From an uncultured Alphaproteobacteria bacterium (GTDB lineage: Bacteria; Pseudomonadota; Alphaproteobacteria; SMXQ01): a stretch of DNA of 64,000 bases. The notes below the pieces were generated by a model that saw only the letters and a program-made list of their open reading frames with translations, did no database searches and was not told where the DNA came from. Position 1 is the stretch's first letter, and each line of letters starts with the position of its first letter. The stretch is taken from the NCBI GenBank assembly GCA_963732875.1, contig CAVTBD010000001.1:20780-84779 (forward strand), read 5' to 3'. The translations under genes were made by a program, and so were the position numbers. This document shows, in pieces, positions 5,274 to 22,520 of the stretch.

Positions 5274-7593
5274 GGGTCGCCTTGGCGGGCTGGAGCGTCA
5301 CCGCAACCGCGAGCGACACCTTGCCGTCGGGCACGCCCTTGCCGGCGTAAACGTCGAACAGGTCGACCGCGACGATCAGCGCCTTGTCGGCGCCCCGGAT
5401 CGCGCGCACCAGCGCTTCCGCCGCCACGCCCGCGTCCACCACGAAGGCGAAGTCGCGCGCGACCGACTGGAACGGCGAGGGTGCGAACGGCGGCCGGGTC
5501 TTGCCACCCTTCACCTTCGGTTCCGGAATCGCGTCCAGCATCACCTCGAAGCCGACCACCGGGCCCGTCACGTCCATCGCCGCAAGCACGCCCGGATGGA
5601 TCTCGCCGAACGCCGCGAGCACGGTCTTGGGTCCGAGCCGGAGCGTGCCCGAGCGGCCGGGGTGGTACCATTCGGGCGCTTCCGTGAAGGTCTGGAGCGA
5701 GGCCACCGGGGCGCCGCATTCGGCCAGCGCGGCGAGCGCATCGGCCTTCGCGTCGAACGCATCGACCGCGCGGCGTGGTACGGCCCAGTGGCGCGGACCG
5801 GCGGCGCCCGCGCGGATACCGCCCGCCACCAGCGCCTGACCGGCGGGGGTGGCGTCGGCATAGGCCGGGCCGACCTCGAACAGGGCCGCGTCCGGGAAGC
5901 CGCGCGCGGCATTGCGCCCGGCGGCCGCGATCAGGGCCGGCAGGGTCGAGGGCCGCATGTCTGTGAGCTCGGATGAAATCGGGTTGAGCAGCTTGAGCTC
6001 GGCCGCGCCGCCGCCGAACAGCCGGGCTGCGCGGTCATCCACGAACGAGAAGGTGACCGCCTCCAGCAGCCCGCGCGCGGCGAGCGCCCGCTTGGCGAGC
6101 GCGCGGCGGCGCTGGCGCGGGGTCTCGGCGGGCTTGGCGAGCGCCCCGGGGCGCGTGAGCGACACCGACGGAATCGAATCGTAGCCGGCGACGCGCAGCA
6201 CCTCCTCCACCAAGTCGGCGGGGATCGAGACGTCGGCCCGCCACGACGGCACCCGCACGTCGAGGCCGCCCGCGCCAGGCTTCGCCTCGAAGCCGAGCGC
6301 GGTCAGGATCTCGACGATGCGCGCCTCCGGCATGTCGACGCCGCCGCGCCTGTGCACGTCGGCGGGCGCGAAGCGGATCACGGCGTCGCGCACCGGCGCG
6401 GCGCCTGCCACCACCAGCTCGGACGCCTCGCCGCCGCAAATCTCCAGTATCAGCTGCGTCGCCGCCTCGATGCCGTCCTCGGCGGACGCCGGATCGACGC
6501 CGCGCTCGAAGCGGTAGCGCGCGTCCGATTCGATGCCGAGGCGACGCCCGGTGGCGGCGATGGCGGTGGGCTCGAACCACGCGGATTCGAGCAGCACGTT
6601 GACCGTGCCCGCGGTGCAGCCCGACGATTTACCGCCCATGATGCCACCCAAGGACAGTACGCCGTCCGCGTCGGCGATCACCACGGCGCCTTCGCCAAGC
6701 TCGTAGTTGCGCCCGTCGAGGGCCGCGAGCGTCTCGCCCGCACGCGAGAACCGCACGGTGAGGTTGCCGGCGATGGTATCGGCGTCGAACACGTGGAGCG
6801 GGCGGCAGCGGTCCATCAGCATCAGGTTGGTGATGTCCACCAGCGCCGAGATCGGGCGCAGCCCCACGTCGGTGAGCTTCTTCCGGAGCCAGTCCGGGCT
6901 CTCGCAATTCTTCACGCCCCTGATGTAGCGCCCGATGAAATGCGGGCAGGCGACGTTGCCGGCGGGGAAGTCGAGGGCAATCCCGATCGGGCTCTTGAAC
7001 GTGCCCTTGATCTGAGCCGGTATCATTGGGGCGAGCGTGCCGAGGCCGCGCGCGGCGAGGTCGCGGGCGATGCCGCGTATACCGAGGCAGTCGGCCCGGT
7101 TGGGCGTCACCGCGATGTCGATCACCGGCTGGTCGAGGCCGAGCGCGTCCGCCGCCGGGGCACCGATGTGCGCGTCCGCCGCCAGCTCGATGATGCCGGC
7201 ATGGTCGTCGCCGATCTCGAGCTCGCGCGCCGAGCACATCATCCCGGCCGATTCGACGCCGCGTATCTTGGCCTTGCCAAGCGTCACGTCGAGGCCGGGC
7301 ACGTAGCTGCCGGGCGCCGCGAACACGCCCCTGAGGCCCGCGCGCGCGTTGGGCGCGCCGCACACCACCTGCACCGTCTCAGTGCCGGTGTTGACCTTGC
7401 ACACCCTGAGCTTGTCGGCGTCGGGGTGCGGCCCCACCTCGACGATCTCGGCCACCGTGAAGGCGGCGAGCTTCGAGGCGCGGTCGTCGATCCCCTCCAC
7501 CTCGAGGCCGAGCGCGGTGAGCGCGTTGGCGATCTCGGCGACCGAGGCCTTGGTGTCGAGGTGCTCGGCGAGCCAGGCGGGGGTGAACTTCAT
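5191..7593 (-). CDS. pheT: Phenylalanine--tRNA ligase beta subunit
   Basis: 800 aa, [13 protein letters not shown]... B3/B4, tRNA-binding and anticodon-binding domain architecture. Start overlaps the pheS stop. Confidence 0.95.
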
Positions 7594-8667
7594 CGCGCGA
7601 GCCCCCGGGCGAGCGACGGCTGGTCGAGGCAGGCAAAGCCGTAGTGGCGCAGCCAGCGGATGTCGGCGTCGAAGAAGGTCCGCAGGTCAGGGATGCCGTA
7701 CTTGAGCATGGCGATGCGCTCGACCCCCATGCCGAAGGCGAAGCCCTGCCATTCGTCGGGGTCGAGCCCGCAATTGGCGAGCACGTTGGGATGGACCATG
7801 CCGGCGCCGAGAATCTCAAGCCAGCCTTCGCCCGCGCCGATCTTCAACTCGCCACCGCCGCGCGAGCAGCCGATGTCGACCTCGCACGACGGCTCGGTGA
7901 ACGGGAAATAGCTCGGCCGGAAGCGCAGCGGCAGGTCGTCCACCTCGAAATAGGCGCGACAGAAATCCTCAAGGCAACCCTTGAGGTGGCCCATGTGGGT
8001 CGCCCTGTCGATCACCAGCCCCTCGATCTGGTGGAACATGGGCGTGTGGGTCATGTCGGAATCGCAGCGATACGTGCGCCCCGGCGCGATGATGCGGTGC
8101 GGCGCCGGCTTGGTCATCATGGTGCGGATCTGCACCGGCGAGGTATGGGTGCGCAGCAGCATCGGGCGCTCGTCGGCGGCGGGCGGCAGATAGAAGGTGT
8201 CGTGCATCTGCCGCGCGGGATGGGCTTCCGGTATGTTGAGGGCGGTGAAGTTGTGGAAGTCGTCCTCGATGTCGGGGCCTTCCGCCACCTGGAAGCCCAT
8301 GTCGCCGAAGATGGCGACGAGCTCGTCCATGGTCTGGCTGATGGGATGGAGGCGGCCGTCCGCCTCGGGCCGCGCCGGCAGGGTGACGTCGATGCGTTCC
8401 TCGGCAAGCCTTGAGTTCGAGCGCGGCACGGCCGAGCGCGGCCTTGCGCGCCTCGAGCGCGGTCGCGACCGCGTCCTTGACCGCATTGAGCGCCTGGCCC
8501 GCGTCCTTGCGTTGGTCCGCCGGCAGCGCGCCCAGCCCCTTCATGGCCTCGGTGATGGAGCCCTTGCGGCCGAGCGCGGCGACGCGGATCTCCTCCAGCG
8601 CGTCGAGGCTCTCCGCCCCGGCGACCGCCTTCAGAATCCCGGCCCTGAGGGTGTCGGCATCGGCCAT
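7590..8667 (-). CDS. pheS: Phenylalanine--tRNA ligase alpha subunit, with an apparent +/-1 frameshift near 8405-8412
   Basis: N-terminal ([37 protein letters not shown]...) is in ORF 7969..8667. The catalytic core (…[41 protein letters not shown]...) is in ORF 7590..8486. The junction reads ELKA|RLAEERIDV. Confidence 0.85.
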
Positions 8668-8689
8668 GATAGTACTGCGCGTCCCTGAT

Positions 8690-8738
8690 TTCGTTTCGTT
8701 TTTAATAAGACAAAAGGGGCTGTCGAGACAGCCCCTTC
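8690..8738 (-). terminator. Rho-independent terminator between rplT and pheS
   Basis: Minus strand AAGGGGCTGTC-tcg-GACAGCCCCTT followed by TTGTCTTATTAAAAACG. Confidence 0.6.
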
Positions 8739-8777
8739 GTCACTTGAACTTTATATTGGCCGGCGTGGGCTGATCGC

Positions 8778-9140
8778 TTACGCGGCCTGAAGCGCCGCGC
8801 GGGCCTGTTCCACGATGGCCGTAAACGCCGCCGGATCGCGCGCGGCGATGTCGGCGAGCACCTTGCGGTCGAGCTCGATGCCCGAACGCTTGATGCCGTT
8901 CATCAGCTCCGAATAGGTGAGCCCGTTCTCGCGCGCGCCGGCATTGATGCGGCGGATCCACAGCGAGCGGAACTCGCGCTTCTTGGCCTTGCGGTCGCGG
9001 TAGGCGTAGCGCAGGCCCTTCTCGACCTTCTCGATGGCGATACGATAGCAGTCGCTGGCGCGACCGCGGTAGCCGGAGGCGAGATCGAGGATCTTCTTGT
9101 GGCGGGCGTGTGTGGTGACGCCCCTCTTGACGCGTGCCAT
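8778..9140 (-). CDS. rplT: 50S ribosomal protein L20
   Basis: [35 protein letters not shown]..., about 120 aa. Confidence 0.95.
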
Positions 9141-9151
9141 GGGTCTCTTCC

Positions 9152-9349
9152 TTAGGCGTAGGGGAGGAACTGCTTGATGATGTTGGCGTCGCCCTTGGCC
9201 AGGATGAAGGTGCCGCGTGCGGTACGCTTCATCTTCTGGGAGCGCTTGCGCAGGTTGTGGCGCTTGTAGGCCACGTTGCCGCGCACCTTGCCGGTGCCGG
9301 TGGTGCGGAAGCGCTTCTTGGCGCCGCTCTTGGACTTCAGCTTCGGCAT
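9152..9349 (-). CDS. rpmI: 50S ribosomal protein L35
   Basis: [42 protein letters not shown]..., 65 aa. Confidence 0.95.
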
Positions 9350-9583
9350 TGCCGGGAATCCTCGGGATTACGGTCGAAATACGGCCCGCCACCGGCCGGC
9401 CCCATGGCCGCCGGGCGGAGCGCAGGGTTATAGCGGGGACCGCCCCGGAATGCAAGGCCCCCCGGGCTGCCCAGGGCCACCCCGGGACGGCCGGGCCCCG
9501 GAATCCGCCGCCAAGGCTGTCCCGGCTCTCGACCCCGAATACATCTTGCGCTACAAGAACTTAGGAATCCTCGGGAATCCCGC

Positions 9584-11395
9584 ATGAAATCGTCCCTCCG
9601 TTCCGTCCCGGCGGTGGCGCGCGACGCGTTCCGCGCGCTGCGGCTCCGCTATACCTCCCTGCGCCGCACCGTGCGCAACTACGAGACCGGCCTGATCGCC
9701 TGCTGCGTGGTGGTGGGGGTCGTGGTCGGCCTCGTGACGGTCGGCCTGCGCGACCTCGTCTATTTCCTGCACCGGCTGGATTTCGCCCTGCCCGGCCACG
9801 CCTATCTCAGCGCCCAGACCAGCCTCGACCTCCTGCGGCTGGCCGTGGTGCCGGCGGCGGGCGGACTGTTGCTCGGGCTGTTGACCCTCGCCCTCCGGAA
9901 AATCCGGCCCAACGACATCGTCGATCCGGTCGAGGCCAACGCGCTCTACGGCGGCCAGATGTCGCTGCGCGACAGCATGCGGCTCACCGGCTACACGGTG
10001 GTGTCCAATGCCTGCGGCGCCTCGGTCGGTATGGAGGCCGGCTACAGCCAGCTCGGCGCCGGCATCTTCTCCGTGGTCGGGCGCTACTTCCACCTGCGCC
10101 GCGAGGACCAGCGCATGATGGTGACGGCGGGTGCCGCGGCGGCGATCTCGGCCGCCTTCAACGCGCCGCTGGCCGGCGCCTTCTACGGCTTCGAGCTGAT
10201 CCACGGCAGCTACACCACGCGGGCGCTCGCCCCGGTCACCGCCGCGTCGCTGGCGGGCGCGCTGGTGGTGCGCCTGCTCGGCACCGACCAGCCGCTGTTC
10301 GAGGTCGCCGGTCGCTTCGTGATCCCGCACTGGTACTACCTGCTGTTCGGGCTGCTCGGCATCGCCGCCGCCGGGCTCGGCATCCTCACCATGAAGAGCG
10401 CGACCTGGATCGAACGCCTGCTGCGCGCGACCCGCCTGCCCACCTGGCTGCGGCCCGCCGCGGGCGGTGTGATCCTGAGCCTGATCGCGCTCGGCTCGCC
10501 CCAGGTGCTCGGCAGCGGCCATGGCGCGATCCAGTGGCACCTCGACACCCAATGGACCTTCACCGCGCTGGCGCTCCTGCTCATGGGCAAGCTGGTGGCC
10601 TCGGCGGTCTCGCTCGGCGCCGGTTACCGCGGCGGCCTGTTCTCCTCATCGCTGTTCCTGGGCGCGCTGCTCGGCGCCACCTTCGTGCAGGCCATCGACC
10701 TCGCGCTGCCGTCGCTGGTGGACCAGCGTACCGTCTTCATGCTGGTCGGCATGGGCTCGGTCGGCGCGGCGATCATCGGCGCGCCCTTCACCATGGTGTT
10801 CCTGGTGCTGGAAGCGACCGGCAGCTTCCCGGTGACGCTCGGCATGCTGGTGGGCGTGGTGCTGGCCGCGACCATCGTGCGGCTCACCTTCGGCTATTCG
10901 TTCTCGACCTGGCGCTTCCACCTGCGCGGCCTGCCACTGCGCGGCGGCCACGACATCGGCTGGATCGCCGGCCTGACGGCCGGGCGCCTGATGCGCTCGG
11001 ACGCGAAGACCGTCCCGGCCGGCATGACCCTCGCCGGCCTGCGCCAGACGGTGCCGCTCGGCAGCAGGAAGTGGGCCTTCGCGGTGGACGATACCGGACG
11101 CTACGTCGGCATGATCGACATCGCCGCCGCCCACGACCACGACCTCGACGACGTCGCCGCCAACCTGATCGCGGCCGACCTCGCCACGGGGCGCAGCAGC
11201 TACATGCTGCCCGGCGACAACATCCGCACCATCCTTCAGCAGTTCGGCGACGCCCAGGCGGAGACCCTGCCGGTGCTGAGCTCGGAGGCCGAGCCGCGCA
11301 TCCTCGGCTATCTGACGGAGGCCTTCTGTCTCAAGCGCTATGCCCAGGAGCTGGAACGGCGTCGGCGCGACGAGCTCGGCATGGCCGAGCTCTAG
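9584..11395 (+). CDS. ClC-family voltage-gated anion channel/antiporter with C-terminal CBS domains; non-canonical selectivity-filter motifs
   Basis: GAAAAISAAFNAPLAGAFYGFELI is the ClC hallmark. The gating Glu is present in GASVGMEAG (canonical GREGP). The GSGIP serine motif is absent (region ...RPNDIVDPVEANALYGGQMS...). GxFxP reads GYRGGLFSSS. CBS-like tail (GRYVGMIDIAAAH...). Confidence 0.8.
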   Translation: MKSSLRSVPAVARDAFRALRLRYTSLRRTVRNYETGLIACCVVVGVVVGLVTVGLRDLVYFLHRLDFALPGHAYLSAQTSLDLLRLAVVPAAGGLLLGLLTLALRKIRPNDIVDPVEANALYGGQMSLRDSMRLTGYTVVSNACGASVGMEAGYSQLGAGIFSVVGRYFHLRREDQRMMVTAGAAAAISAAFNAPLAGAFYGFELIHGSYTTRALAPVTAASLAGALVVRLLGTDQPLFEVAGRFVIPHWYYLLFGLLGIAAAGLGILTMKSATWIERLLRATRLPTWLRPAAGGVILSLIALGSPQVLGSGHGAIQWHLDTQWTFTALALLLMGKLVASAVSLGAGYRGGLFSSSLFLGALLGATFVQAIDLALPSLVDQRTVFMLVGMGSVGAAIIGAPFTMVFLVLEATGSFPVTLGMLVGVVLAATIVRLTFGYSFSTWRFHLRGLPLRGGHDIGWIAGLTAGRLMRSDAKTVPAGMTLAGLRQTVPLGSRKWAFAVDDTGRYVGMIDIAAAHDHDLDDVAANLIAADLATGRSSYMLPGDNIRTILQQFGDAQAETLPVLSSEAEPRILGYLTEAFCLKRYAQELERRRRDELGMAEL

Positions 11396-11412
11396 CCTCA
11401 CGCCATCTTCCG

Positions 11413-13176
11413 TCAGTAGACGTCGCGCACGTAGCGACCGCTCGCCACCATCTGGTCGACCTCGACCGCGGCGGCGGCGTCCGACATGCCGCCCTCGCGG
11501 GCGACGATGGCGCGCAGCGCCCGGTCCACATCCTTGGCCATGCGGCTCGCGTCGCCGCACACGTAGAAATGCGCGCCCCCGGCGAGCCAGTTCCACAGGG
11601 CGGCGGCGTTCTCGGCCATGCGGTGCTGGACGTAGAGCTTTTCCTTGCCGTCGCGCGAGAACGCGAGGTCGAGGCGCGTGAGCGTGCCGTCGGCGAGGAA
11701 GCCCTCGAGTTCCTCACGATAGAGAAAGTCGGTGGCGCGATGACGGTCGCCGAACAACAGCCAGGCCGGACCGGGGACGCCCGCCGCGCGGCGCTCCTCG
11801 AGGAAGGCGCGGAACGGCGCGATGCCGGTGCCGGGACCGACCATGATGACCGGCGTCGCCGGATCGGCTGGCAGGCGGAAGCGCCCGTTGCGCTGGACGT
11901 AGACCCGGACCGGGCCGGCGCCGGCGCGATCGGCGAGGTAGGTCGAGCCGATGCCGACGCGGTCGCGCCCGTGGCTCGCGTAGCGCACCGCGGCGACGGT
12001 GAGATGGACTTCGCCCGGGTGCGCGCGCGGGCTCGACGAGATCGAGTAGAGCCGGGGCGCGAGACGCGGCAGGATCGCCACCAGGTCCTGGGGCTGGGCG
12101 AGCACGCCGGGATAGCGCAGCACCAGGTCGATCACGTCGCGGCCGTAGAGCCAGTCCGCGAGGTCGGCGCTGCGCTCGGGCGCGAGCAGGGCCGAGAGCG
12201 TGGCGTCGCCCGCGCGCGCGGCGAACTTGATGACGGTCGGCTGGGTCAGGCGCCCGATCGAGAGCCGACGCGCGAGCGCCGCGCCGAGCGGCAGGGTGCC
12301 GTCGAGCGTCACCCGGGCATCCGGGTCAAAGCCGGCCGCGGCGAGCAGCGCCTCCACCATCGCGGGCGGATTTTCGACCACCACGCCGAGCGCGTCGCCG
12401 GGCTCGTAGGCGACGCCGGTGCCCTCCAGCGACAGCGCGATGTGGCGCACGTCCTTGTCGGAACCGGGCGCGGTGAGCGGGCGGTTGTCGATCACCGGCG
12501 CCGCCACCGGGTTGGCGCGCGTGCCGGGCGCGTCTTCCGGTTCTTCGTCGGGGACCGCCACCACGGCAGGCGGCCCTTTATCGGCGACACCGGCCTCGGC
12601 GGCAAACGTCTCCAGCATGGCGTCGCGCCACGGCGCGAACGGCGGGGCGGGGTCGCCATCGACGTCGACACGGGCGGCGAGCCGCCGGGCGCCGAGCGCG
12701 GCGAAACGTTGGTCGAGGAACGCGCCGTAGCCGCAGAACTGCAGGTAGTTGGAATCGCCGAGCGCCAGCAACGCATAGGACAGGCCCGCGAGCGGCGCGC
12801 CTTCGGCGGCGGCAAGATCGTCGCTCACGCGGCGCGCGCTGTCGGGCGGCTCGCCTTCGCCGTGGGTGGCGGCAATCACCACCGCGTGGCCAAGCGCGCC
12901 GAGCTCTTCCAGGGTCAGCGTGCCGATGTCGCGCGCCGTGGCGTCGAAGCCGCGCCCCTTCGCCGCGCGGGCGAACTTGCGCGCGAGCCCCTCGGCGGTG
13001 CCGGTCTGGGAGGCGTAGAGCACCGCGAGCGGGACCGCCGGCGCGGGCGCCTCCGCCGCCTCCGGCGGCGTCAGCAGCGCCGCGAGGAAACCCGACAGCC
13101 AGGCACGCTGCTCGCGCGTGAACGGCGCGTCGTCGGGGATCAGCGGGATTTCGCGGAGCGGCGCGGGCACGGCCAC
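11413..13176 (-). CDS. Sulfite/nitrite reductase [NADPH] flavoprotein component (CysJ-like diflavin reductase)
   Basis: Flavodoxin domain (LAVLYASQTGTAEGLA...), FAD site RLYSISSSP and NADPH site GPGTGIAPFRAF. A ~45-aa N-terminal extension carries the motif APFTREQRAWLSGFLAALL. Confidence 0.8.
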   Translation of the reverse strand: MAVPAPLREIPLIPDDAPFTREQRAWLSGFLAALLTPPEAAEAPAPAVPLAVLYASQTGTAEGLARKFARAAKGRGFDATARDIGTLTLEELGALGHAVVIAATHGEGEPPDSARRVSDDLAAAEGAPLAGLSYALLALGDSNYLQFCGYGAFLDQRFAALGARRLAARVDVDGDPAPPFAPWRDAMLETFAAEAGVADKGPPAVVAVPDEEPEDAPGTRANPVAAPVIDNRPLTAPGSDKDVRHIALSLEGTGVAYEPGDALGVVVENPPAMVEALLAAAGFDPDARVTLDGTLPLGAALARRLSIGRLTQPTVIKFAARAGDATLSALLAPERSADLADWLYGRDVIDLVLRYPGVLAQPQDLVAILPRLAPRLYSISSSPRAHPGEVHLTVAAVRYASHGRDRVGIGSTYLADRAGAGPVRVYVQRNGRFRLPADPATPVIMVGPGTGIAPFRAFLEERRAAGVPGPAWLLFGDRHRATDFLYREELEGFLADGTLTRLDLAFSRDGKEKLYVQHRMAENAAALWNWLAGGAHFYVCGDASRMAKDVDRALRAIVAREGGMSDAAAAVEVDQMVASGRYVRDVY

Positions 13177-13177
13177 G

Positions 13178-14956
13178 TCACGAGGCCTCGCCGGTGGCGA
13201 TGGCGGCCAGTGCCGCCGCGTCCTGGCGGCCCGCGAAGGCGGCGAAGTCCTCGCCCTGGCGGCGCCCGTCCTTGTAGGCGCCGAGCAGGCGCGCGAGCGC
13301 CGCCGGCACCGCGTCGGCGGGCAGGCCCTTGGCGATCTCGCGCGCGAGCGCGCGTCCCTGGTCGGAGCCGCCGCCGAGATAAAGATGGTAGCCCTCGACG
13401 GTGCCGCCCTCGCCCGCCACCTGCACGCCGAGCAGCCCGATGTCGCCGATGTAGTGCTGGGCGCAGGAATTGGGGCAGCCGGTGAGGTGGATGTTGACCG
13501 GGCTGTCGAGCGCGACCGCGCGGTCGAGGTGCTTGCGGATGGCGAGCGCGTGGCCCTTGGTGTCGGTCATGGCGAACTTGCAGCCGGTGTTGCCGGTGCA
13601 GGCCACCAGCCCGGCCGAGGCCGAGCTCGCGCGGATGTCGAAGCCCATCGCCCGGACCTTGCGCTCGACCGTGGAGAGCTTTTCGTCGGGCACGTCGGGC
13701 AGGATCACGTTCTGCCACACGGTCAGGCGCAGCTCGCCCGAGCCGCACTCCTCGGCGAGCTCGGCGATCTTGTCCATCTGGGCCGCCGTCATGCGTCCCA
13801 CGGGAATCGCGATGCCGACGTAGCTCAGGCCCGGCGCCTTCTGGGTATAGACACCGACATGGCCGTGGCGGATGACGGCGCGCGGCGGCAAACAATCCGT
13901 GAGAGCGAGCCTTCGCAGCGGAAAGGCGAGCCTGGCCTCGGTCGCGGCCAGGAACGCGTCCATGCCGATGCGGTCGATCAGGAAGCGCAGGCGCGCCTTC
14001 TTGCGGTCGGTGCGGTCGCCCCGGTCGGCGAACACCCGGATCATGGCGGCGGCGGCGGCGACGCATTCCTCGGGCGCAACGATGATCCCCGCGTCCTCGG
14101 CGAAGAAACGGTGGCCGGTGATGCCCCCCAGCATCACGCGGAACCACACGCCGGGCGCGATGCCCTTGCCGTCGGGCACGCGCACCGCCTGGAAGCCGAT
14201 GTCGTTGGTGTCGGACACCACGCTGACGCTGCCGCCCGAATCGAACGCCACGTTGAACTTGCGCGGCAGGCCGAACAGGTCGCGGTTGTTGGCGAGGTAG
14301 AACTGCAGCCCCTGGGCGAGCGGCCGCACGTCGTAGAGCTCGGCCGGGTCGATGCCGGACGTCGGCGTCGCGGTGATGTTGCGCACGTTGTCGGCGCCGG
14401 CCCCGCGCGAGGTGAGCCCGGCGTTGGACAGCGCCATCAGCACGTTGACGATGTCGTGCGGCGCGAATTCGCGCAGCTGCACGTTGCCGCGCGTGGTCAC
14501 GTCGCCGTAGTCGTTGCCCCAGCGGCGCGCGATCTCGGCGAGCGCGCGCATCTGCACGGCCGTGATTATGTTTCCCGGCACGCGCACGCGCACCATGAAC
14601 GAGTCCTGCGCCGGCGCTACGTAGAACAGGCCGTGGAACTTGAAGCGGAACACGTCGCCGCCCTCGGGCGGGGTATCGGTGGCGGCGTGGTGCAGGATCT
14701 TGTCCCAGATGTCGAGCGGGTTGTGCTCGAGCTTGAGGCGCTCCTCGCGGGTGAGCTCGTCGAGCGGCACGCCGAACGCGGTCTTGCCCTCGGGCGGGCC
14801 CGCGAGGTTGGCGGGCGCTGCCCCCGGCTCGTGGGTCAGGCGCCCGTCGGCGCCCTCCCCCACGAACGGCACCATCCCGCGGGCGCGCAGGCCCGCCGCG
14901 TAGCCTTCCAGGTACTCCTTCTGCGCCTTGGTGAAGGGCACGATCTCGGCACTCAT
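13178..14956 (-). CDS. Siroheme/[4Fe-4S] nitrite/sulfite reductase hemoprotein (CysI/NirA-like)
   Basis: 592 aa with the Cys cluster ...CTGNTGCKFA...TGCPNSCAQ, two NiR/SiR ferredoxin-like half-domains and the N-terminal motif VPFTKAQKEYLEGYAAGL. Confidence 0.8.
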   Translation of the reverse strand: MSAEIVPFTKAQKEYLEGYAAGLRARGMVPFVGEGADGRLTHEPGAAPANLAGPPEGKTAFGVPLDELTREERLKLEHNPLDIWDKILHHAATDTPPEGGDVFRFKFHGLFYVAPAQDSFMVRVRVPGNIITAVQMRALAEIARRWGNDYGDVTTRGNVQLREFAPHDIVNVLMALSNAGLTSRGAGADNVRNITATPTSGIDPAELYDVRPLAQGLQFYLANNRDLFGLPRKFNVAFDSGGSVSVVSDTNDIGFQAVRVPDGKGIAPGVWFRVMLGGITGHRFFAEDAGIIVAPEECVAAAAAMIRVFADRGDRTDRKKARLRFLIDRIGMDAFLAATEARLAFPLRRLALTDCLPPRAVIRHGHVGVYTQKAPGLSYVGIAIPVGRMTAAQMDKIAELAEECGSGELRLTVWQNVILPDVPDEKLSTVERKVRAMGFDIRASSASAGLVACTGNTGCKFAMTDTKGHALAIRKHLDRAVALDSPVNIHLTGCPNSCAQHYIGDIGLLGVQVAGEGGTVEGYHLYLGGGSDQGRALAREIAKGLPADAVPAALARLLGAYKDGRRQGEDFAAFAGRQDAAALAAIATGEAS

Positions 14957-14987
14957 GGCGTGCCTCCGCCGTTCATGCCGGTTGCCG

Positions 14988-15836
14988 TCATTCGGCCGGG
15001 GACATCCCTGCGGGCACCGCCGGCGCCGGCTGCGGCTTGACCTTGGGCGCCATGCCGCGATGGGTCAGGTAGATGGCGAAGCCGGTGAAGGTGAAGCCGC
15101 CGACGATGTTGCCGAGCGTCACCGGGATCTGGTTCCACAGCCACCAGTCGCCGAAGCCGACCTTGGCGCCGAGCAGCATCCCGGTCGGGATCACGAACAT
15201 GTTGACCACCGAATGCTCGAAGCCTTGCGCGAAGAACACCACGATCGGCAGCCACGCGGCGGCGATCTTGCCGACCGTGGAGGCCGACGTCATGCCCATG
15301 ACGACGCCGAGGCACACCATCCAGTTGCACAGGATCGCCTTGACGAAGCAGGTCACCAGGCCGGCCATGCCGAGATGCTCGTAGCCCAGCGTCTTGGCCT
15401 GCGCGATGGCGATGATTTTGGCCGCGATCGGGTCGGGCGCGCCCGCCGTGCCCATCTTGGAGATGGCGATGGCGTAGAGCCCGGCGTAGATCAGCGCGCC
15501 GATCAGGTTGCCGAGAAACACCCAGCTCCAGTTGACGAGCACCTGGAACGGGCTCGCCTTGCCCTCCAGCCAGGCGAGCGGCACCAGGGCGAAGCTGCCG
15601 GTGACCAGCTCGAGGCCGAGCAGCACGATCATCACGAAGCCTACCGGGAAGATCACGGCGCCGACGATCGGCTGGTCAGTCTGCACGATGGCGCCGATGG
15701 CGAGGCTGGTGGCGAACCCGAGGATCGCGCCCGACAGTGCGCCGCGGATGAGCAGGTCGCGCACCGGCAGGCCGATCTTCTTGATGCCGGCATCGACCAT
15801 CGTGTCGGCGACCTCGTTTGGCTTCATGTAGTCCAT
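14988..15836 (-). CDS. Formate/nitrite transporter (FNT) family channel; NirC/HSC/FocA-like
   Basis: MDYMKPNEVADT... with FNT signature regions (FPVGFVMIVLLGLELVTGSF, CNWMVCLGV). First gene of the FNT-cysI-cysJ-like operon. Confidence 0.8.
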   Translation of the reverse strand: MDYMKPNEVADTMVDAGIKKIGLPVRDLLIRGALSGAILGFATSLAIGAIVQTDQPIVGAVIFPVGFVMIVLLGLELVTGSFALVPLAWLEGKASPFQVLVNWSWVFLGNLIGALIYAGLYAIAISKMGTAGAPDPIAAKIIAIAQAKTLGYEHLGMAGLVTCFVKAILCNWMVCLGVVMGMTSASTVGKIAAAWLPIVVFFAQGFEHSVVNMFVIPTGMLLGAKVGFGDWWLWNQIPVTLGNIVGGFTFTGFAIYLTHRGMAPKVKPQPAPAVPAGMSPAE

Positions 15837-16118
15837 AACACCCCTCCCGCGGGTGGCAGCGCGCCCGCGTCGCATGAGACAGGAACAGTCCTGCCTTCAG
15901 GTATTCAAGGGGCGTGCCAGTTCACGGAGGGGACGGTGGCGCGCGGACGGGCGCGGGCGCGCCCGGCATAAACGCGATCCGCGGCGCGGGAACTGCCTCA
16001 AAGCGTGCAGCACCCCGTCAAAATTTGTGCAGTGCCCCGAAACGACGGCGCCGGCCCCAAGGGACCGGCGCTGCGAATGCGGAGCGGGAACGCGGGCGCG
16101 TCAGAACCTGTTTAGTTT

Positions 16119-16167
16119 AGAGCAGGATCACGGTTCAGATTGAGTCAACCTGAACCGACCCTGCTCT
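16119..16167. repeat. About 50-bp nested palindromic repeat element (copy 1 of 2), overlapping the infC stop
   Basis: AGAGCAGGATCACGGTTCAGATTGAGTCAACCTGAACCGACCCTGCTCT. A near-identical copy is at 29241-29290. Confidence 0.7.
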
Positions 16168-16702
16168 AGCGCGGCGCGATCACCATGGTCATCTGGCGGC
16201 CTTCCATCTTGGGGATCGCCTCGACCTTGGCCTTCTCGTCCATCTCCTGGCGCACCTTGTTGAGCACCGCGAGGCCGAGCTCCTGATGCAGGAACTCGCG
16301 GCCGCGGAAGCGGATCGTCACCTTGACCTTGTCGCCCTCGTCCAGGAACTTGTGGATCGCCCTCAGCTTGACGTCGTAGTCGTGCTGGTCGATGCCGGGG
16401 CGCATCTTGATTTCCTTGACGTCGATGGTCTTCTGCTTCTTGCGCGCCTCGTTGGCCTTCTTCTGGGCCTGGTACTTGAACTTGCCGTAGTCGAGGATCT
16501 TGCAGACCGGCGGATCGGCGCTGGGGGAGACCTCGACCAGGTCGAGGCCGGCGGCTTCGGCCTTGGCAAGCGCCTGGGCGATGGTCACGACGCCGAGCAT
16601 TTCGCCGTCTTCGCCGACGAGGCGCACGGACGGGACGTGGATCGCTTCGTTCACGCGGGGGCCGCCCTTCGAGGGCGGCTGGGGGGAGGTGGGCCTGGCT
16701 AT
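16166..16702 (-). CDS. infC: Translation initiation factor IF-3, probable non-AUG (AUA) start
   Basis: IF-3 homology ([26 protein letters not shown]...[15 protein letters not shown]) extends upstream of the GTG at 16654 with no in-frame ATG. An ATA codon (16700-16702) is preceded by GGAGAG at -8. IF-3 autoregulation through a rare start codon is established knowledge. Confidence 0.8.
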
Positions 16703-16716
16703 GGAACGCTCTCCAT

Positions 16717-16760
16717 CAGTTGTTGACTGGGCAGTTGTTGAATGGGCAGTCGTTGATACA
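16717..16760. repeat. 15-bp tandem repeat x~2.5 (CAGTTGTTGAMTGGG) in the infC leader
   Basis: cagttgttgactggg cagttgttgaatggg cagtcgttgatac, directly upstream of the infC SD. Confidence 0.6.
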
Positions 16761-16881
16761 CGGCGGTGGTCGAAAACGGCAGGTGCCGGGACCGGGACGC
16801 AAACAGACCCACGCAGGGAGTCCCGGTCCTGAACGGAAACCGGCGATCCCTGAGTATGTTGTCTGTCTTATTTAAGGAGTC

Positions 16882-18856
16882 TTACCCACTGGTCGCGGTT
16901 TGTGAAGGCACCTGCGCCTCTTCGGCAAGTCTAGCGCGCGCTTCATCGAGCGCAAGCGATTCTTGCGCGGTCGAGCCGAGACGGCGCACCGCGACCGTGC
17001 GCTGCTCGGCCTCGCGCCGGCCGATCGCGAGGATCACCGGCACTTTGGCGAGGGAATGCTGGCGCACCTTGTAGCCGATCTTTTCGTTGGTGAGGTCGAG
17101 CTCGACCCGGAGCCCGGCCGCGCGCAAGGCGTGCGCCACCTCGCGGGCATAGGAATCGCCGTCGTTGGTGATGGTGGCGATGACCACCTGCACCGGCGCG
17201 AGCCACAGCGGGAACGCGCCGGCGTAGTGCTCCACCAGGATGCCGATGAAGCGCTCGAACGAGCCCAGGATGGCGCGGTGCAGCATCACCGGGCGGTGGC
17301 GTCCGCCGTCCTCGCCGGTATAGGCGGCGTCGAGCCGCTCGGGCAGCACGAAGTCCACCTGCAGCGTGCCGCACTGCCAGTCGCGGCCGATGGCGTCGCG
17401 CAGCACGAACTCGAGCTTGGGCCCGTAGAACGCGCCCTCGCCCGGGTTGAGGATGGTCTCGAGCCCGGCGGCGGCGACCGCCTCCTTGAGCGCGCCCTCG
17501 GCGCGGTCCCAGATGTCGTCGCTGCCGGCGCGCGTCTCGGGCCGGTCGGAGAACTTCACCACGACTTCCGCAAAGCCGAAGTCCTGGTAGACGGCTGAGC
17601 AGCAGGTCGCAGAACGCCTTGGTCTCGGACGTGATCTGGTCCTCGGTGCAGAAGATATGGGCGTCGTCCTGGGTGAAGGCACGCACGCGCATGATGCCGT
17701 GCAGCGCGCCCGAGGGCTCGTAGCGGTGGCACGAGCCGAACTCGGCCATGCGCAGCGGCAGGTCGCGGTAGCTCTTGATGCCCTGGCGGAAGATCTGCAC
17801 GTGGCACGGGCAGTTCATCGGCTTGATGGCGAGCACGCGCTCGCCTTCGCTCTTCTTCGCTTCCTCGGAGCGCGGCGAGGCCGTGAACATGGCGTCGCCG
17901 AACTTCTCCCAGTGGCCCGACTGCTCCCACAGCACGCGGTCCACCAGCATCGGCGTCTTGACCTCGACGTAGCCCGAGGCTTCGAGCCGGCCGCGGATGT
18001 AGTTCTCGACCGTGCGATAGAGCGTCCAGCCCTTGGGGTGCCAGAACACGCTGCCGACCGCGAGCTCCTGGACGTGGAACAGGTCCATCTCGCGCCCCAA
18101 ACGACGATGGTCGCGGCGCTCGGCCTCCTCCAGCCGGTGCAGGTAGTCGGCCAGGTCCTTGTCGCTGGCCCAGGCGGTGCCGTAGATGCGCTGCAGCATC
18201 TCGTTGCGCGAATCGCCGCGCCAGTAGGCGCCGGCCAGCTTCATCAGCTTGAACGCCTTGCCGAGCTTGCCGGTGGACGGCAGGTGCGGCCCGCGGCACA
18301 GGTCGATGAAGTCGCCCTGGCGGTAGAGCGTCACGTCCTCGGCGGCCGGGATCGATTCGATGATCTCGGCCTTGTAGTGCTCGCCCTGGTCCTTGAAGAA
18401 CTGGACCGCCCGGTCGCGGTTCCACACCTCGCGTTCGATCCCCTCGTCGCGCGCGACGATCTCCTTCATGCGCGCCTCGATCTTCTCGAGGTCCTCGGGC
18501 GTGAACGGCTCGGCGCGCGAGAAGTCGTAGTAGAAGCCGTTCTCGATGGCGGGACCGATGGTGACCTGGGTCTCGGGATAGAGCTCCTTGACCGCCTCGG
18601 CCATGACATGGGCCGCGTCGTGGCGGATCAGCTCCAGCGCCTCGAGCCCGCTCTTGGGCGTGACGATCTCGATGCGCGCGTCGGCCTCGATCGGGCGCGC
18701 GAGGTCCCGCATCACCCCGTCGACCTTGACGGCAAGCGCGGCCTTGGCGAGGCCCGGACCGATGGCGGCCGCGACCTCGGCGCCGGTGGTCCCGCGCGCG
18801 ACCTTGCGCGAGGAGCCGTCGGGCAGCGTCAGCGTGATCTCAGCCATATCGTCCAA
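16882..18856 (-). CDS. thrS: Threonine--tRNA ligase, with an apparent frameshift near 17600-17610
   Basis: N-terminal ~400 aa in ORF 16943..18856 (TGS, editing and catalytic motifs ...[26 protein letters not shown]). C-terminal anticodon-binding domain in ORF 16882..17682 (...[14 protein letters not shown]...). Junction ...[11 protein letters not shown]|AVYQDFGF. Confidence 0.85.
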
Positions 18857-18940
18857 AGCCTTCGAATCCGGGGTTTCACGGGCCGGCGCCGGGCCGCTCC
18901 CGGCCGCCGCCGGGGGAGAGTAGCCGCGAGGGCGGCGGTG

Positions 18941-19984
18941 TCAAGCGGAGGGGGCGGCGGCTCCCGCCGGCCTTATCTCACGCTTCTTCAACAGCATGGC
19001 GGTGCGGACCTCATCGACCGTGAGGGCCGAGAGCTCCTGGCGGCGCAGAATCGCCACGGTGCGCGCGGGGCTGCCGGGCGGCACGGCGCGCGCGCCGGGG
19101 CCCTCGTAGGGGCCGCGCGGGCGGGTCAGCGCTGGGTCGGTGGCCGACGAATAGAGCACCAGCGACGGGCAGCCGGTGACGCCGATCAGATGCATGGGGC
19201 CGGTGTCGTTGCCGACCGCGCCGGCGGCGTCGCGGGCGAGCGACATCACCTCGAGGAGCGGCGAGTTGTCGCACAGGTTGACGATCTCGGGCGCGGCGGC
19301 GGCGACCTCGGCGCAGGCGTCGCGCTCGGCGCCGGCGCCCAGCACCACCGGGCGGTAGCCGACCGAAACCAGGCGCCGGGCGAGCTCGCCATATCGGGCC
19401 GCAGGCCAACGCTTCTCCGGATGGCCGGCCGAGCCGCCCGGCGCGATCAGCACGTAGGGCGCGCCGTCGTCGAGAAGCCGGTGGCGCGCGACGTCCACCC
19501 AGGCCCAGGACAGGTCGAGGGGCGGGTATTCGGATGCCGCGATGCCGGCGATGGCGAGCTGCTCGGCCTGGCGCTCCAGGGTATGGATGAAGTCGCGGCG
19601 CGGGTTGTCGTGGAAGTGCGAGCCCGCGGCGATATGGCCCGACCATTCCGGCCTCTGGCGCGCGAACGGCGGGCCCATCAGGCGGAAGTAGCTGCGCGTG
19701 CGGTCGGCGGTCTGCAGGTCGTAGACGCGCGCGAAGCCCGCGCCGTTGAGGCGCCGGGCGAGGCGCCACCACGCCAGCGGCCGGGCCATCGAGGGGCGCT
19801 CGTCGATCCAGACCTCGTCGAACAGGCCGGTCCGGCGCGCAAGGTCTTCGAGCGGGGCGATGGTCATGAGGGTGAGATGCGCGTCCGCGTGATGGGCGCG
19901 GATCGCGGTCATGGCGCGGTACGACAGGATGAAGTCGCCGAGCGCACCGAGCTTGATGACGAGGATGCGGGGACGGTCGTTCAC
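18941..19984 (-). CDS. Glycosyltransferase family 9 (ADP-heptose:LPS heptosyltransferase-like)
   Basis: MNDRPRILVIKLGALGDFILS... and a GT9 C-terminal ...GNDTGPMHLIGVTGCPSLVLY. Confidence 0.75.
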   Translation of the reverse strand: MNDRPRILVIKLGALGDFILSYRAMTAIRAHHADAHLTLMTIAPLEDLARRTGLFDEVWIDERPSMARPLAWWRLARRLNGAGFARVYDLQTADRTRSYFRLMGPPFARQRPEWSGHIAAGSHFHDNPRRDFIHTLERQAEQLAIAGIAASEYPPLDLSWAWVDVARHRLLDDGAPYVLIAPGGSAGHPEKRWPAARYGELARRLVSVGYRPVVLGAGAERDACAEVAAAAPEIVNLCDNSPLLEVMSLARDAAGAVGNDTGPMHLIGVTGCPSLVLYSSATDPALTRPRGPYEGPGARAVPPGSPARTVAILRRQELSALTVDEVRTAMLLKKREIRPAGAAAPSA

Positions 19985-20080
19985 AGATGCCTCGCGGGGG
20001 TATCGATCCCCCTCACCCGGTTCCGGCTAGGCTCGCTCGTCGTGCTTTGCACGCCTTCGCGTGACGCCAAGCCTCCACAA

Positions 20081-20212
20081 CCCTCTCCTCCGCAAGCGGG
20101 GGCGAGGGGCTTCAAGGGGAAAGCCAATGGATAAGTCCCTCTCCCCCGAATGGGGGAGAGGGTTGCGCAGGGTCGGCACGCAAGCGCCCTACCCGGAGCT
20201 GGGTGAGGGGGA
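20081..20212. repeat. GGAGAGGG-hairpin intergenic repeat element (REP/RIME/MITE-like), copy 1 of 3
   Basis: CCCTCTCCCCCgaatGGGGGAGAGGG hairpin followed by ...GCGCCCTACCCGGAGCTGGGTGAGGGGGA. An additional upstream CCCTCTCCTCCgcaagcGGGGGCGAGGGG module is present. Confidence 0.7.
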
Positions 20213-20270
20213 TTTGACGCCAAGTGCGATAGCATGATCATCGAGTCTCGCGCGGGATCGCGGGGGCGCC

Positions 20271-21521
20271 TCACGACGCCTGGACGACGTCGTCAGGCGC
20301 CGGGGCGGCAGCGGCCTCGAGCACCTCGGTGTAGACCGCGAGGGTCTTCGCGCACATCTGCTCCCGGGTGAAGCGCTCACGGACGGCGCGCATGGCCTCG
20401 GCGGCGAGGCGGTGGCGCGCCTCGGCCTTGAGCGTGAGCGCGGCATGAAGCGCGGTGGCGAGGCTTTCCGAGTTGCCCGGGCGGAACAGCCAGCCGGTGC
20501 GGCCCTCCTCCACGATCTCGACCGCGCCGCCGTGGGCCGGACCCGCGACCGGGCGGCCCATGGCCATGGCCTCGGCCAGCGTGCGGCCGAACGCCTCGGG
20601 CTTGGTCGCGGCCGAGACCACCACGTCGGACAGCATGTAGGCGGCCGGCATGTCGCGACAGTAGTCGACGAAGCGCACCAGGCCCTCGACCTCGCGGTTG
20701 CGCGCGAGCGCCGACAGGTGGGCGACGTAGTCGTTGGAGCCAGTATCCACGCCGGGCATCACGCACAGCACGTCGCGCCGGCCGAGGCGCGCGAGACCCT
20801 CGATCATCAGCTCGTGGCCCTTCCAGTCCGAGAAGCGCCCCGGCATCATGATGATCTTGCGGTCGTCGGGAAGCTGCCAGCGGGTGGCGAGCTGGATGAT
20901 GCGCTGCTGGGTCACGTTGTCGGGATCGAACAGGTGCACGTCCACGCCGCGCTGGATCACGCGCAGGCGCGCGGGCTCGACGTGATAGCGCTCGGTGATG
21001 TAGCGCGCGATGAATTCCGAGATCGCGATCACGCGCTCGCCGCGCGCCATCACCGCGTTGTAGTAGTGCTTGAGAAACGGCCGCTCGCCGTAGGTGCCGT
21101 GGAAGGTGGTGACGAAATGCACCCCGGCGCGTTTGGCCGCGGCCTCGGCGCTCCAGGCGGGCGCGCGCGAGCGCGCGTGGACGATGTCGACGTTGTGCTC
21201 GGCGATCAGCGCGGTGATGCGCTCGATGTTGCGGCGCATGACGAACGGGTTCTTGGAGGCAAGCGGCAGCTCGACATGGGTGACGCCGGCGCGCGTCAGC
21301 TCGCGCACCATGGGCCCGCCCTGGGAAGCCACCACCGCGCCCCAGCCCGCCTGGGCGAGCGCGGCGGCGATATCGACCGTGCCGCGCTCGACGCCGCCGC
21401 CCTCGAGCGAAGGCAGCACCTGGAGGACGACCGGCGGGCGGCCTTCCGGTGCCTCGCGCGCGGTGTTAGGTTGGGCCGCGCCGGCGGACTCGCCGGGGGC
21501 GCTGGCGTCGGATGCGCTCAT
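20271..21521 (-). CDS. Glycosyltransferase family 4 (GT-B)
   Basis: ...VVLQVLPSLEGGGVERGTVDIAAAL... N-terminal and a GT4 C-terminal domain (EAFGRTLAEAMAMGRPV). Start uncertain (ORF extends to 21560). Confidence 0.7.
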   Translation of the reverse strand: MSASDASAPGESAGAAQPNTAREAPEGRPPVVLQVLPSLEGGGVERGTVDIAAALAQAGWGAVVASQGGPMVRELTRAGVTHVELPLASKNPFVMRRNIERITALIAEHNVDIVHARSRAPAWSAEAAAKRAGVHFVTTFHGTYGERPFLKHYYNAVMARGERVIAISEFIARYITERYHVEPARLRVIQRGVDVHLFDPDNVTQQRIIQLATRWQLPDDRKIIMMPGRFSDWKGHELMIEGLARLGRRDVLCVMPGVDTGSNDYVAHLSALARNREVEGLVRFVDYCRDMPAAYMLSDVVVSAATKPEAFGRTLAEAMAMGRPVAGPAHGGAVEIVEEGRTGWLFRPGNSESLATALHAALTLKAEARHRLAAEAMRAVRERFTREQMCAKTLAVYTEVLEAAAAPAPDDVVQAS

Positions 21522-21551
21522 GGGGACGCGGTTATCTCCCAACGCGGACGG

Positions 21552-22346
21552 ATGATGCAAGAAACATTTGAAATTCTACCACGGGGCGGCAAGCCGTCCA
21601 TCGCCTACCGGCGCATGGCCGGGCCCGAAGGCACGGCGGGCACGGAGGCCCGGCCGGGCCTGGTGTTCATGGGCGGCTTCATGTCCGACATGACCGGCAC
21701 CAAGGCGGCCTGGCTGGAGGGCTTCGCCGCGCGCGCCGGGCTGCCCTATCTACGCTTCGACTATGCCGGCCACGGTGCCTCCGAGGGCGCGTTCGCCGAC
21801 GGCACCATCGGCGGCTGGCTCGACGACGCGCTCGACGCGCTGGATCGCCTGACCGAGGGTCCGCAGGTGCTGGTGGGCTCGTCCATGGGCGGCTGGCTCG
21901 CGCTGCTGGCCGCGCGCGACCGGCGCGACCGGGTCAAGGGCATCGTCGGCGTCGCCGCCGCACCCGATTTTACCGAGGACCTGATCCATGCCGAACTGTT
22001 GGCCACGGACCGCTACACCCTGATGACCGAGGGCGCGGTCGAGCAGGCGAGCGAGTACGGCGAGAGCGCCTACACCATCACCCGCGCGCTGATCGAGGAC
22101 GGGCGCGAGCACCTGCTCCTGCGAACGCCGATCGCGCTCGACTGCCCGGTGCGCCTGGTGCACGGGCTCGATGACCCGGACGTGCCGTGGCGCACGGCGC
22201 TGCGCATCGCGTCCAAGCTCAAGGGCGGCGACGTCACGGTGACCCTGATCAAGGGCGGCGACCACCGCCTGTCGCGGCCCGAGGACCTCGAGCGCATCGC
22301 CGCCGCGGTGATGGAGGTGGTGAACGGCGGCGCGGCAGCGGCCTAG
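21552..22346 (+). CDS. Alpha/beta-fold hydrolase
   Basis: MMQETFEIL..., nucleophile elbow GSSMGG, C-terminal His (GGDHRLSRPE). Confidence 0.7.
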   Translation: MMQETFEILPRGGKPSIAYRRMAGPEGTAGTEARPGLVFMGGFMSDMTGTKAAWLEGFAARAGLPYLRFDYAGHGASEGAFADGTIGGWLDDALDALDRLTEGPQVLVGSSMGGWLALLAARDRRDRVKGIVGVAAAPDFTEDLIHAELLATDRYTLMTEGAVEQASEYGESAYTITRALIEDGREHLLLRTPIALDCPVRLVHGLDDPDVPWRTALRIASKLKGGDVTVTLIKGGDHRLSRPEDLERIAAAVMEVVNGGAAAA

Positions 22347-22394
22347 GCGGTAGCGTCGTATCAGTCACGTCGCCCCGTCCTTTCGTCAGCTCCA

Positions 22395-22512
22395 CCCTCC
22401 ACCTCACCCTCCCGCTGCGCGGGTCCCTCCCTCTCCGCCCCCGGGGGCGGAGAGGGTTGCGAAAGGTTGGCGCGGTACGCGCCTACCCCGGAGCTGGGTG
22501 AGGTGGGGGCTG
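22395..22512. repeat. GGAGAGGG-hairpin intergenic repeat element, copy 2 of 3, with terminal inverted repeats
   Basis: TIRs CACCTCACCC...GGGTGAGGTG. Core CTCCCTCTCCGCCCCCGGGGGCGGAGAGGGTTGCG...CGCCTACCCCGGAGCTGGGTGAGG. Confidence 0.7.
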
Positions 22513-22520
22513 CGGTCTCC

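Follow-up and report, generated by a model that had tools for sequence, protein, structure and literature searches.

A probable nitrite-assimilation operon, pairing a NirA-family hemoprotein with a CysJ-like flavoprotein, between infC and rpmI of an uncultured alphaproteobacterium

What is the function of a group of genes encoding an FNT-family channel, a siroheme hemoprotein, a flavoprotein and a ClC-family protein, and how did they come to lie between infC and rpmI? The question is raised by a stretch of 64,000 nucleotides from an uncultured Alphaproteobacteria bacterium (assembly GCA_963732875.1, contig CAVTBD010000001.1, positions 20,780 to 84,779), analyzed here at its full length and indicated as "the window". 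A previous interpretation of the same DNA, made without database searches and indicated as the sequence-only reading, considered the four genes as an anion-handling module, and left two options: nitrite assimilation built on a CysJI architecture, or sulfite reduction with a dedicated sulfite or hydrosulfide channel. The first option is retained for its function, while a CysJI architecture holds for the flavoprotein only, the hemoprotein being of the NirA type. The FNT, NirA and flavoprotein genes, all on the minus strand, would form a nitrogen-regulated nitrite-assimilation operon, with a probability of about 0.8; this is suggested by what the genes encode, by the residues of the active site and the spacing of the operon, and by conserved neighbours and promoter motifs. 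The features of the proposed operon are the following.

14988-15836, minus strand: FNT-family anion channel, 282 aa (PF01226), first gene of the operon
13178-14956, minus strand: NirA-family siroheme/[4Fe-4S] hemoprotein, 592 aa (NF007126)
11413-13176, minus strand: CysJ-like diflavin reductase, 587 aa (PF00258, PF00667 and PF00175)
15904-15919, minus strand: sigma-54-type -24/-12 promoter-like element, TGGCACGCCCCTTGAA (aligned with the loci L002-L004 and L087, described below)
16004-16038, minus strand: conserved upstream element, TGCACAAA...GTGCTGCAC (from the alignment; presumably of NtrC type)

The three genes are tightly spaced, as anticipated by the sequence-only reading: 31 nt, including a GGAGG, separate the FNT stop from the ATG of the hemoprotein, and a single nucleotide is found between the hemoprotein stop and the GTG start of the flavoprotein, in agreement with the spacing reported earlier for a cysI stop and a cysJ start. 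All genes of the block, and rpmI and infC at its sides, are located where the sequence-only reading had placed them. The first ATG of the FNT reading frame is at 15875; the one at 15836 is used by gene callers and by the homologues.

The hemoprotein had been described as CysI-like, an assignment which is not maintained. With NF007126, the NCBIfam equivalog model of the NirA family, it scores 798.6 bits (cut-off 523) over residues 7-589, and with the ferredoxin-nitrite reductase model 400 bits; the scores are only 117-183 bits with CysI and Sir models, and both CysI equivalogs are failed (TIGR02041, 150.5 vs 756.55; NF010029, 183.2 vs 457). Its architecture, according to Pfam, consists of two NIR_SIR_ferr plus NIR_SIR repeats. 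Among solved structures, tobacco (273 bits, 35.5% identity) and spinach (267 bits) nitrite reductases score best, followed by Mycobacterium tuberculosis SirA (184 bits) and Escherichia coli CysI (89 bits, 23% identity). The CX5C...CX3C ligands are complete, with Cys at the equivalents of CysI C434, C440, C479 and C483. When aligned with E. coli CysI and the tobacco enzyme, the protein conserves the equivalents of CysI Arg83, Arg153 and Lys215, while the position of Lys217 is occupied by Asn, in the window and in 7 out of 7 homologues: the pocket motif is PRKFN in these proteins, PRKWN in tobacco nitrite reductase and PRKFK in E. coli CysI. A NirA-family nitrite reductase, rather than a CysI-like enzyme, is therefore what these scores and residues propose, with nitrite as the presumed substrate.

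The same Arg/Arg/Lys/Asn pocket and Cys ligands are found in the ferredoxin-nitrite reductases of plants and cyanobacteria (tobacco Nii3, 3B0G; spinach, 2AKJ). In contrast to these, the window NirA features an additional N-terminal extension of about 100 residues, carrying a motif shared with the flavoprotein; its gene lies 1 nt upstream of a diflavin reductase gene, and no ferredoxin gene is found nearby.

The channel is a member of the FNT family (PF01226, 231.4 bits; gathering score 34.6). Its best solved relative is LCIA/NAR1.2 from Chlamydomonas (PDB 9V2A; 115 bits, 33% identity), which, unlike the window protein, is a eukaryotic protein of the chloroplast envelope; the NAR1 group includes both nitrite and bicarbonate transporters. 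Alignment with LCIA and NirC shows that the constriction Thr (ELVTG) and the central His (FEHS) are kept, as they are in LCIA. Lower scores are obtained with FocA (70 bits), with NirC (54 bits, 27.5% identity) and with 3TDO/3TE0 (65 bits), which we take to be the hydrosulfide channel HSC, the depositors' name being only "formate/nitrite transporter". The protein is proposed as a candidate nitrite channel.

The flavoprotein, judged by its domains, is a true CysJ relative: the flavodoxin, FAD and NADPH domains are all present, and residues 19-587 are 39.7% identical to E. coli CysJ. The score with the cysJ equivalog TIGR01931 (548.6 bits) is below the cut-off of 668.15; NF004859, "sulfite reductase subunit alpha", is passed with 466.9 bits (cut-off 432), over residues 210-587 only. 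Compared to CysJ-CysI of E. coli, the pair is similar in consisting of a diflavin NADPH reductase and a siroheme/[4Fe-4S] hemoprotein, whose genes lie side by side and are translationally coupled. It differs in gene order, hemoprotein then flavoprotein being the reverse of cysJ-cysI; in its neighbours, which are nitrogen genes, where cysH flanks cysIJ in E. coli; and in the hemoprotein itself, distant from CysI and with Asn for Lys217.

The FNT-NirA-flavoprotein cassette is also found, with 58-79% identity, at six unrelated loci (L002, L003, L004, L085, L086 and L087). In L085, nasT (a response regulator with an ANTAR domain) and nasS are located upstream of the cassette and cysG downstream; in L086, from Rhodovibrio, a cyanase gene lies beside it. 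On a Methylocystis plasmid (L088, NZ_CP107559.1), RefSeq annotates an ANTAR protein, NrtA, nrtABC, an FAD oxidoreductase, a NirA family protein, a "sulfite reductase subunit alpha" and a nitrate reductase. In a cultured Bradyrhizobium (L098), the gene order is nasT, nasS, FNT, NirA, flavoprotein, and the FNT protein is 68% identical to that of the window. No cysH/cysDN-type sulfate-assimilation genes are present beside the cassette, either in the window or in the 8 loci for which genes were listed (L002-L004, L085-L088 and L098). The arrangement, previously presented as departing from the textbook, is an ordinary and widespread one, found in many bacteria and usually preceded by a sigma-54-type promoter, the NirA-flavoprotein pair being already annotated in RefSeq. 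A gene for an IS605 OrfB/Cas12f-like TnpB protein is located in L087 (16693-17868), 3 kb downstream of the cassette; none is found near the cassette of the window.

The closest described system is nasT-nasS-nirA (bll4573-bll4571), followed by bll4570, of Bradyrhizobium japonicum/diazoefficiens, where a NirA-type hemoprotein gene precedes a "sulfite reductase (NADPH) flavoprotein" gene. Growth of B. japonicum on nitrate or nitrite requires nirA (bll4571), located beside nasTS (PMC4724949); this gene is co-induced with bll4570 under nitrogen stress (PMC4926349). Differences concern regulation, since the window has no adjacent nasTS and features a sigma-54-type promoter-like element instead; the flavoprotein, which in L098 is without the flavodoxin domain, all three domains being present in the window; and the donor, assumed to be ferredoxin in the published model, bll4570 being outside that study. 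An FNT-type nitrite channel in one operon with a siroheme assimilatory nitrite reductase is also found in nirBD-nirC-cysG of E. coli and nasABGHC of Paracoccus, a likeness extended by the cysG gene which follows the cassette in L085 (for NasH, PMC4724949). The reductase of these systems, in contrast, is of the NirB type, with a fused FAD/NADH domain and a NirD/NasG Rieske protein, rather than NirA with a diflavin protein.

The region upstream of the FNT gene was aligned with those of the four closest cassette homologues. A TGGCAC-N5-TTGC element is conserved about 80 nt before the FNT start: the full motif is present at the aligned position in L002, L003, L004 and L087, the last having TGGCATGTAATTTGCA. 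The window version, 83 nt upstream of the start, keeps the GG at -24, but at -12 the GC is changed to GA. Further upstream, by about 100 nt, TGCACAA is invariant in the window and in L002-L005; at the equivalent place, L087 features TGCACAGTCACGGTGCA (TGCAC-N7-GTGCA), which matches the NtrC consensus. Elsewhere in the window lie rpoN (42498-44036) and the genes for the large and small subunits of glutamate synthase, gltB and gltD (29507-34153 and 34101-35633), so that both the sigma factor for the proposed promoter and a route for ammonium assimilation are present. The motifs point to sigma-54 control under nitrogen limitation, NtrC being the presumed activator. A scan of the block for sigma-70 promoters gave 0 sites; a terminator scan gave 4, compared to 3.2 expected, none of them between operon genes.

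In the proposed mechanism, transcription from the putative sigma-54 promoter, helped by the upstream activator site, would turn the operon on under nitrogen limitation. The pentameric FNT channel would admit nitrite (or nitrous acid) to the cytoplasm, where the siroheme/[4Fe-4S] hemoprotein would perform its six-electron reduction to ammonium. Electrons would be delivered by the co-translated CysJ-like diflavin protein, from NADPH to FAD to FMN to NirA, in the role which ferredoxin plays for the NirA of plants and cyanobacteria.

A number of observations weigh against this reading. No nitrate reductase, nasTS or ntrBC is found next to the operon, within the 64 kb of the window. The -12 element is TTGA instead of TTGC, which makes the strength of the promoter uncertain. 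The FNT protein is below the equivalog cut-offs for both NirC (61.6 vs 293) and FocA (130.5 vs 290), and its selectivity is not readable from sequence, nitrite being only its presumed substrate. The correspondence of the cassette to the B. japonicum nirA-bll4570 genes is deduced through the gene order of the Bradyrhizobium sp. locus, and the path from flavoprotein to NirA is suggested only by gene order, by the 1-nt spacing and by co-expression. Finally, bacterial NirA is described as ferredoxin-dependent (PMC4724949; PMC11195156).

Other functions may be considered for the same genes. An assimilatory NADPH sulfite reductase, analogous to CysJI and served by a sulfite or hydrosulfide FNT channel, is quite improbable. 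It would account for the 39.7% identity to CysJ and for the NCBI family name of the flavoprotein, siroheme reductases are able to reduce both anions, and the 65 bits of 3TDO/3TE0 would fit if these structures are indeed HSC; moreover, the protein called "NirA" in M. tuberculosis proved to be a sulfite reductase (PMC11195156). Yet the window protein scores lower with this very enzyme, SirA, than with the plant nitrite reductases (184 vs 273 bits), CysI and Sir models are far below their cut-offs, and Asn replaces the Lys of sulfite reductases in every family member examined. The sulfite or hydrosulfide channel of the sequence-only reading is contradicted, in addition, by the sigma-54-type promoter-like element and by cassette neighbours in other genomes, where nasTS, nrtABC, nitrate reductase, cyanase and cysG are found at several of the loci and cysH/cysDN-type genes at none of the 8 listed; Bradyrhizobium nirA mutants, furthermore, fail to grow on nitrite (PMC4724949). 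The identification of the hemoprotein as a CobG-type precorrin-3B synthase was also tried, since TIGR02435 is passed (373 bits, cut-off 234.8), and was discarded as hardly credible: the score with the NirA-family model is over twice that value and covers the full length, neither the window nor the homologous loci examined have cobalamin genes beside the hemoprotein gene, and the Arg/Arg/Lys anion-binding pocket is intact.

The same chemistry might instead serve nitrite detoxification or export, with the FNT channel working outward or in response to nitrosative stress, an unlikely alternative to assimilation. FNT channels such as NirC and FocA are bidirectional, and the absence of a visible nitrate reductase near the operon would fit this role. 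The Bradyrhizobium nas system, in addition, has been tied to the management of nitric oxide and nitrite (PMC4724949). Nitrogen acquisition is indicated, on the contrary, by the sigma-54/NtrC-type motifs and by the nasTS, nrtABC, nitrate reductase and cysG genes of the homologous loci, and the ammonium produced would be assimilated in any case, gltBD being present in the window. The hemoprotein should be annotated as a NirA-type nitrite reductase and the flavoprotein as its probable NADPH reductase partner, neither of them as cysI or cysJ: a pair misread as sulfite reductase would lead to mis-assigned sulfur and nitrogen metabolism, in this metagenome-assembled genome and in many soil genomes.

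The wider interest of the operon is limited to one point, the electron donor of NirA: a flavoprotein versus the assumed ferredoxin. The balance tips slightly in favor of NirA and the CysJ-like flavoprotein representing a widespread, biochemically uncharacterised class of NADPH-dependent assimilatory nitrite reductases, with subunits possibly joined by their common N-terminal motif. Such a class may be a hybrid, composed of a hemoprotein of the plant nitrite reductase type and a diflavin donor of the sulfite reductase type; in that case, the label "ferredoxin-dependent" given to bacterial NirA would be wrong for this family. Keyword searches of the literature found no paper describing a NirA-CysJ or diflavin nitrite reductase, the diflavin matches being to the mycobacterial nitrate reductase NasN, and no role assigned to the flavoprotein encoded beside bacterial nirA, the donor being assumed to be ferredoxin.

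The motif shared by the N-termini of NirA and of the flavoprotein is PF(T/S)xxQ(K/R)x(Y/W)LxG(F/Y)xAxL, in the versions PF(T/S)xxQKEY(L/I)xG(Y/F)xAG for NirA and DAPF(T/S)xxQRAWLxGFxxAL for the flavoprotein. It is seen in the window, L002, L004 and L085-L089, and is kept in Methylocystis and Sulfitobacter proteins at 44-45% identity. A similar stretch, TPTQLAWVSGYF, is present at residues 29-40 of E. coli CysJ, inside the N-terminal 51 residues to which octamerisation is assigned (PMC11195156). The motif may correspond to a docking or oligomerisation helix.

The flavoprotein partner of NirA has at least two architectures across the family, because in L088 and L098 the flavoprotein encoded beside NirA (529-538 aa) is without a flavodoxin domain. 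In the L098 protein, of 538 aa, Pfam finds FAD and NAD domains only. In L088 a separate gene for an FAD-dependent oxidoreductase is located ahead of nirA.

The fourth gene of the block, ClC, is an unrelated passenger, and its inclusion in an anion-handling module has to be abandoned. A functional partnership with the operon was considered and ruled out: none of the nine further cassette-bearing loci examined has ClC beside the cassette, while in L093, a short contig described below, it persists between infC and rpmI without the cassette. Close homologues in Paracoccaceae have unrelated neighbours; a metagenome scan with ClC gave 3 loci, none informative for synteny. The protein belongs to a large alphaproteobacterial family (5,115 homologues, many with CBS domains) and passes PF00654, Voltage_CLC, with 238.3 bits (cut-off 24.8), remaining below all Clc equivalog cut-offs, ClcA and ClcB included. 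The gating Glu, equivalent to Glu148, is kept in GMEAG; in place of the GSGIP motif of Ser107 the protein has D-I-V-D-P, and a Leu occupies the position of Glu203. The term "divergent", used for this protein by the sequence-only reading, is a fair one with respect to ClcA, given the missing GSGIP Ser and Glu203.

How the block came to lie at its present position may be evaluated from the features around it, listed here.

9466-16171, no strand: inserted block, 6,706 bp (blastn collinearity with L006, see below)
9152-9349, minus strand: rpmI (L35; TIGR00001, 69.6 bits), downstream flank of the block
9427-9456, minus strand: rpmI promoter-like element, CTTGCA, 17 nt, TATAAC (same motif before rpmI in L006 and L051)
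9355-9367, plus strand: first copy of the 13-mer GGAATCCTCGGGA, overlapping the rpmI ribosome-binding region
9564-9576, plus strand: second copy of the 13-mer, 8 nt 5' of the ClC ATG
9584-11395, plus strand: ClC-family channel/transporter of 603 aa, extended at the C-terminus (PF00654, 238.3 bits)
16118-16166, minus strand: 49-nt imperfect palindrome over the infC stop codon (folding, z = -5.9)
16166-16702, minus strand: infC (IF3; TIGR00168, 252.6 bits), upstream flank of the block

The order of the genes on the minus strand is pheT, pheS, rplT, rpmI, the gap, infC and thrS. The distance between rpmI and infC is 6,816 bp, larger than the 6.3 kb or so previously reported; ClC and the flavoprotein gene converge, with 17 nt between their stops.

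A PheT scan of species-representative genomes gave 79 loci; 33 loci, nearly all alphaproteobacterial, are informative for the infC-rpmI junction. The closest relative, L006 (PheT 81% identical), follows the window collinearly for about 20 kb (5204-25018), with the exception of the block: by blastn, L006 7510-8064 corresponds to window 16726-16172 and L006 8108-12390 to window 9465-5204, so that window 9466-16171 replaces a spacer of only 43 bp which, in L006, runs from the infC stop to the rpmI promoter. In L051 (PheT 71%) and L058 infC and rpmI are only 174-178 bp apart. The block is an insertion relative to these nearest relatives, as the sequence-only reading had proposed. The premise of that proposal, namely that infC-rpmI is a highly conserved gene string, fails in this clade: the two genes are adjacent in 11 of the 33 informative loci, split by 0.9-3.8 kb in 9, and in the other 13 infC is not found within 4-8 kb of rpmI. 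The junction is thus broken in 22 out of 33 loci. Judging by eye from open reading frame translations, without family searches, the split loci host a helix-turn-helix regulator, genes for a TRAP transporter, a cation-efflux protein, a peptidase, and a luciferase-like monooxygenase accompanied by a phosphodiesterase.

A CTTGCA-17 nt-TATAA(C/A) element stands before rpmI in L006, in L051 and in the window, where it is intact at about 10 nt from the insertion boundary (9466). Because of this promoter-like element, expression of rpmI-rplT need not depend on read-through from infC, and the site would tolerate insertions since, in this lineage, rpmI-rplT has its own promoter. In the sampled loci, mostly alphaproteobacterial, the junction is a permissive, dynamic site, which takes varied cargo and also loses it, and the location of the block is a local peculiarity that does not amount to a new kind of system. 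Terminal repeats, whether inverted or direct, were not found at the ends of the block (a search of 9000-17000 found only low-identity chance pairs, typical of DNA with 70% GC), and its open reading frames include no transposase or integrase. The GC content and the GC content at third codon positions (GC3) of the block match those of the flanks, GC3 of block genes being 0.91-0.95, so that there is no compositional sign of a recent foreign origin.

Two further contigs bear on the history of the locus. L001, a second assembly contig under an ENA assembly accession different from that of the 126,791-bp contig of the window, is 98.35% identical at the nucleotide level and features the same junctions. 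L093, a close relative, comes from an unrelated sequencing run; its short contig has the order rplT-rpmI, ClC, infC, with identities to the window of 95% for rpmI, 97% for infC and 82% for ClC. Directly after the ClC stop, L093 carries GTAGACGTCGCGCACGTGGCG, identical in 20 of 21 nt to the final seven codons of the window's flavoprotein gene and found in the corresponding place. This 21-nt fossil beside ClC is explained most simply if ClC and the operon were both present in the ancestor shared by L093 and the window organism, and the operon was then deleted in L093; the locus both gains and loses genes.

A chimeric metagenome contig, which would make the placement of the block an assembly artefact, is very unlikely. 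The assembly has evident errors, with thrS and pheS frameshifted, and its differences from L001 are concentrated in thrS and pheST; nevertheless, L001 has identical junctions, L093 has ClC between rpmI and infC together with the flavoprotein fossil, and the GC3 of block genes is the same as in the rest of the window. The divergence between the window and L001 (3216-24453) is uneven: the stretch 8500-16500, which takes in rplT, rpmI, the block and the greater part of infC, has 13 mismatches and 1 gap column, while the mismatches number about 100 in 5000-8500 (pheST), with many indels, and about 50 in 16500-19000 (thrS and the 5' end of infC). The cause could be a segment exchanged recently, with the conserved flanks serving as homology arms, or assembly noise from strain mixing.

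The repeats reported at the ends of the block were also evaluated. The nested palindrome at the infC end is a real, strong hairpin (16118-16166; -40.6 kcal/mol, z = -5.9), found once in the window and without a U-tract. Different sequences and hairpins are present at this position in L006 and L093. Rather than a boundary repeat, it is probably the infC 3' stem-loop. At the rpmI end, the sequence-only reading described paired palindromes bounding the block. The exact 13-mer GGAATCCTCGGGA is indeed found at 9355 and 9564 (0.17 matches expected with one mismatch or less; 2 of 100 shuffled sequences reach two matches), with each copy just 5' of a start codon, of rpmI and ClC respectively; the boundary at 9466 lies between them, some 100 bp from each. 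The copies flank the rpmI-ClC intergenic region rather than the block, and the one on the ClC side is absent upstream of ClC in L093. An Rfam scan of 8600-17200 (E <= 1) gave one sub-threshold chance match, RT-15 (19.5 bits vs 82); neither a fluoride riboswitch ahead of ClC nor an L20 leader was found, nor any family of the ANTAR type.

Among the genes around the block, two essential ones are split by frameshifts in the window, thrS (16882-18856) and pheS (7590-8667), and pheT is also fragmented in L001; these are probably consensus errors of the metagenome assembly, rather than pseudogenes. For infC, 87% identical to L006 over all 178 residues, the start is probably the ATA at 16702, behind GGAGAG (16700-16718), since homology with relatives begins at residue 1. 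A non-canonical start of this kind fits the unusual start codons involved in IF3 autoregulation.

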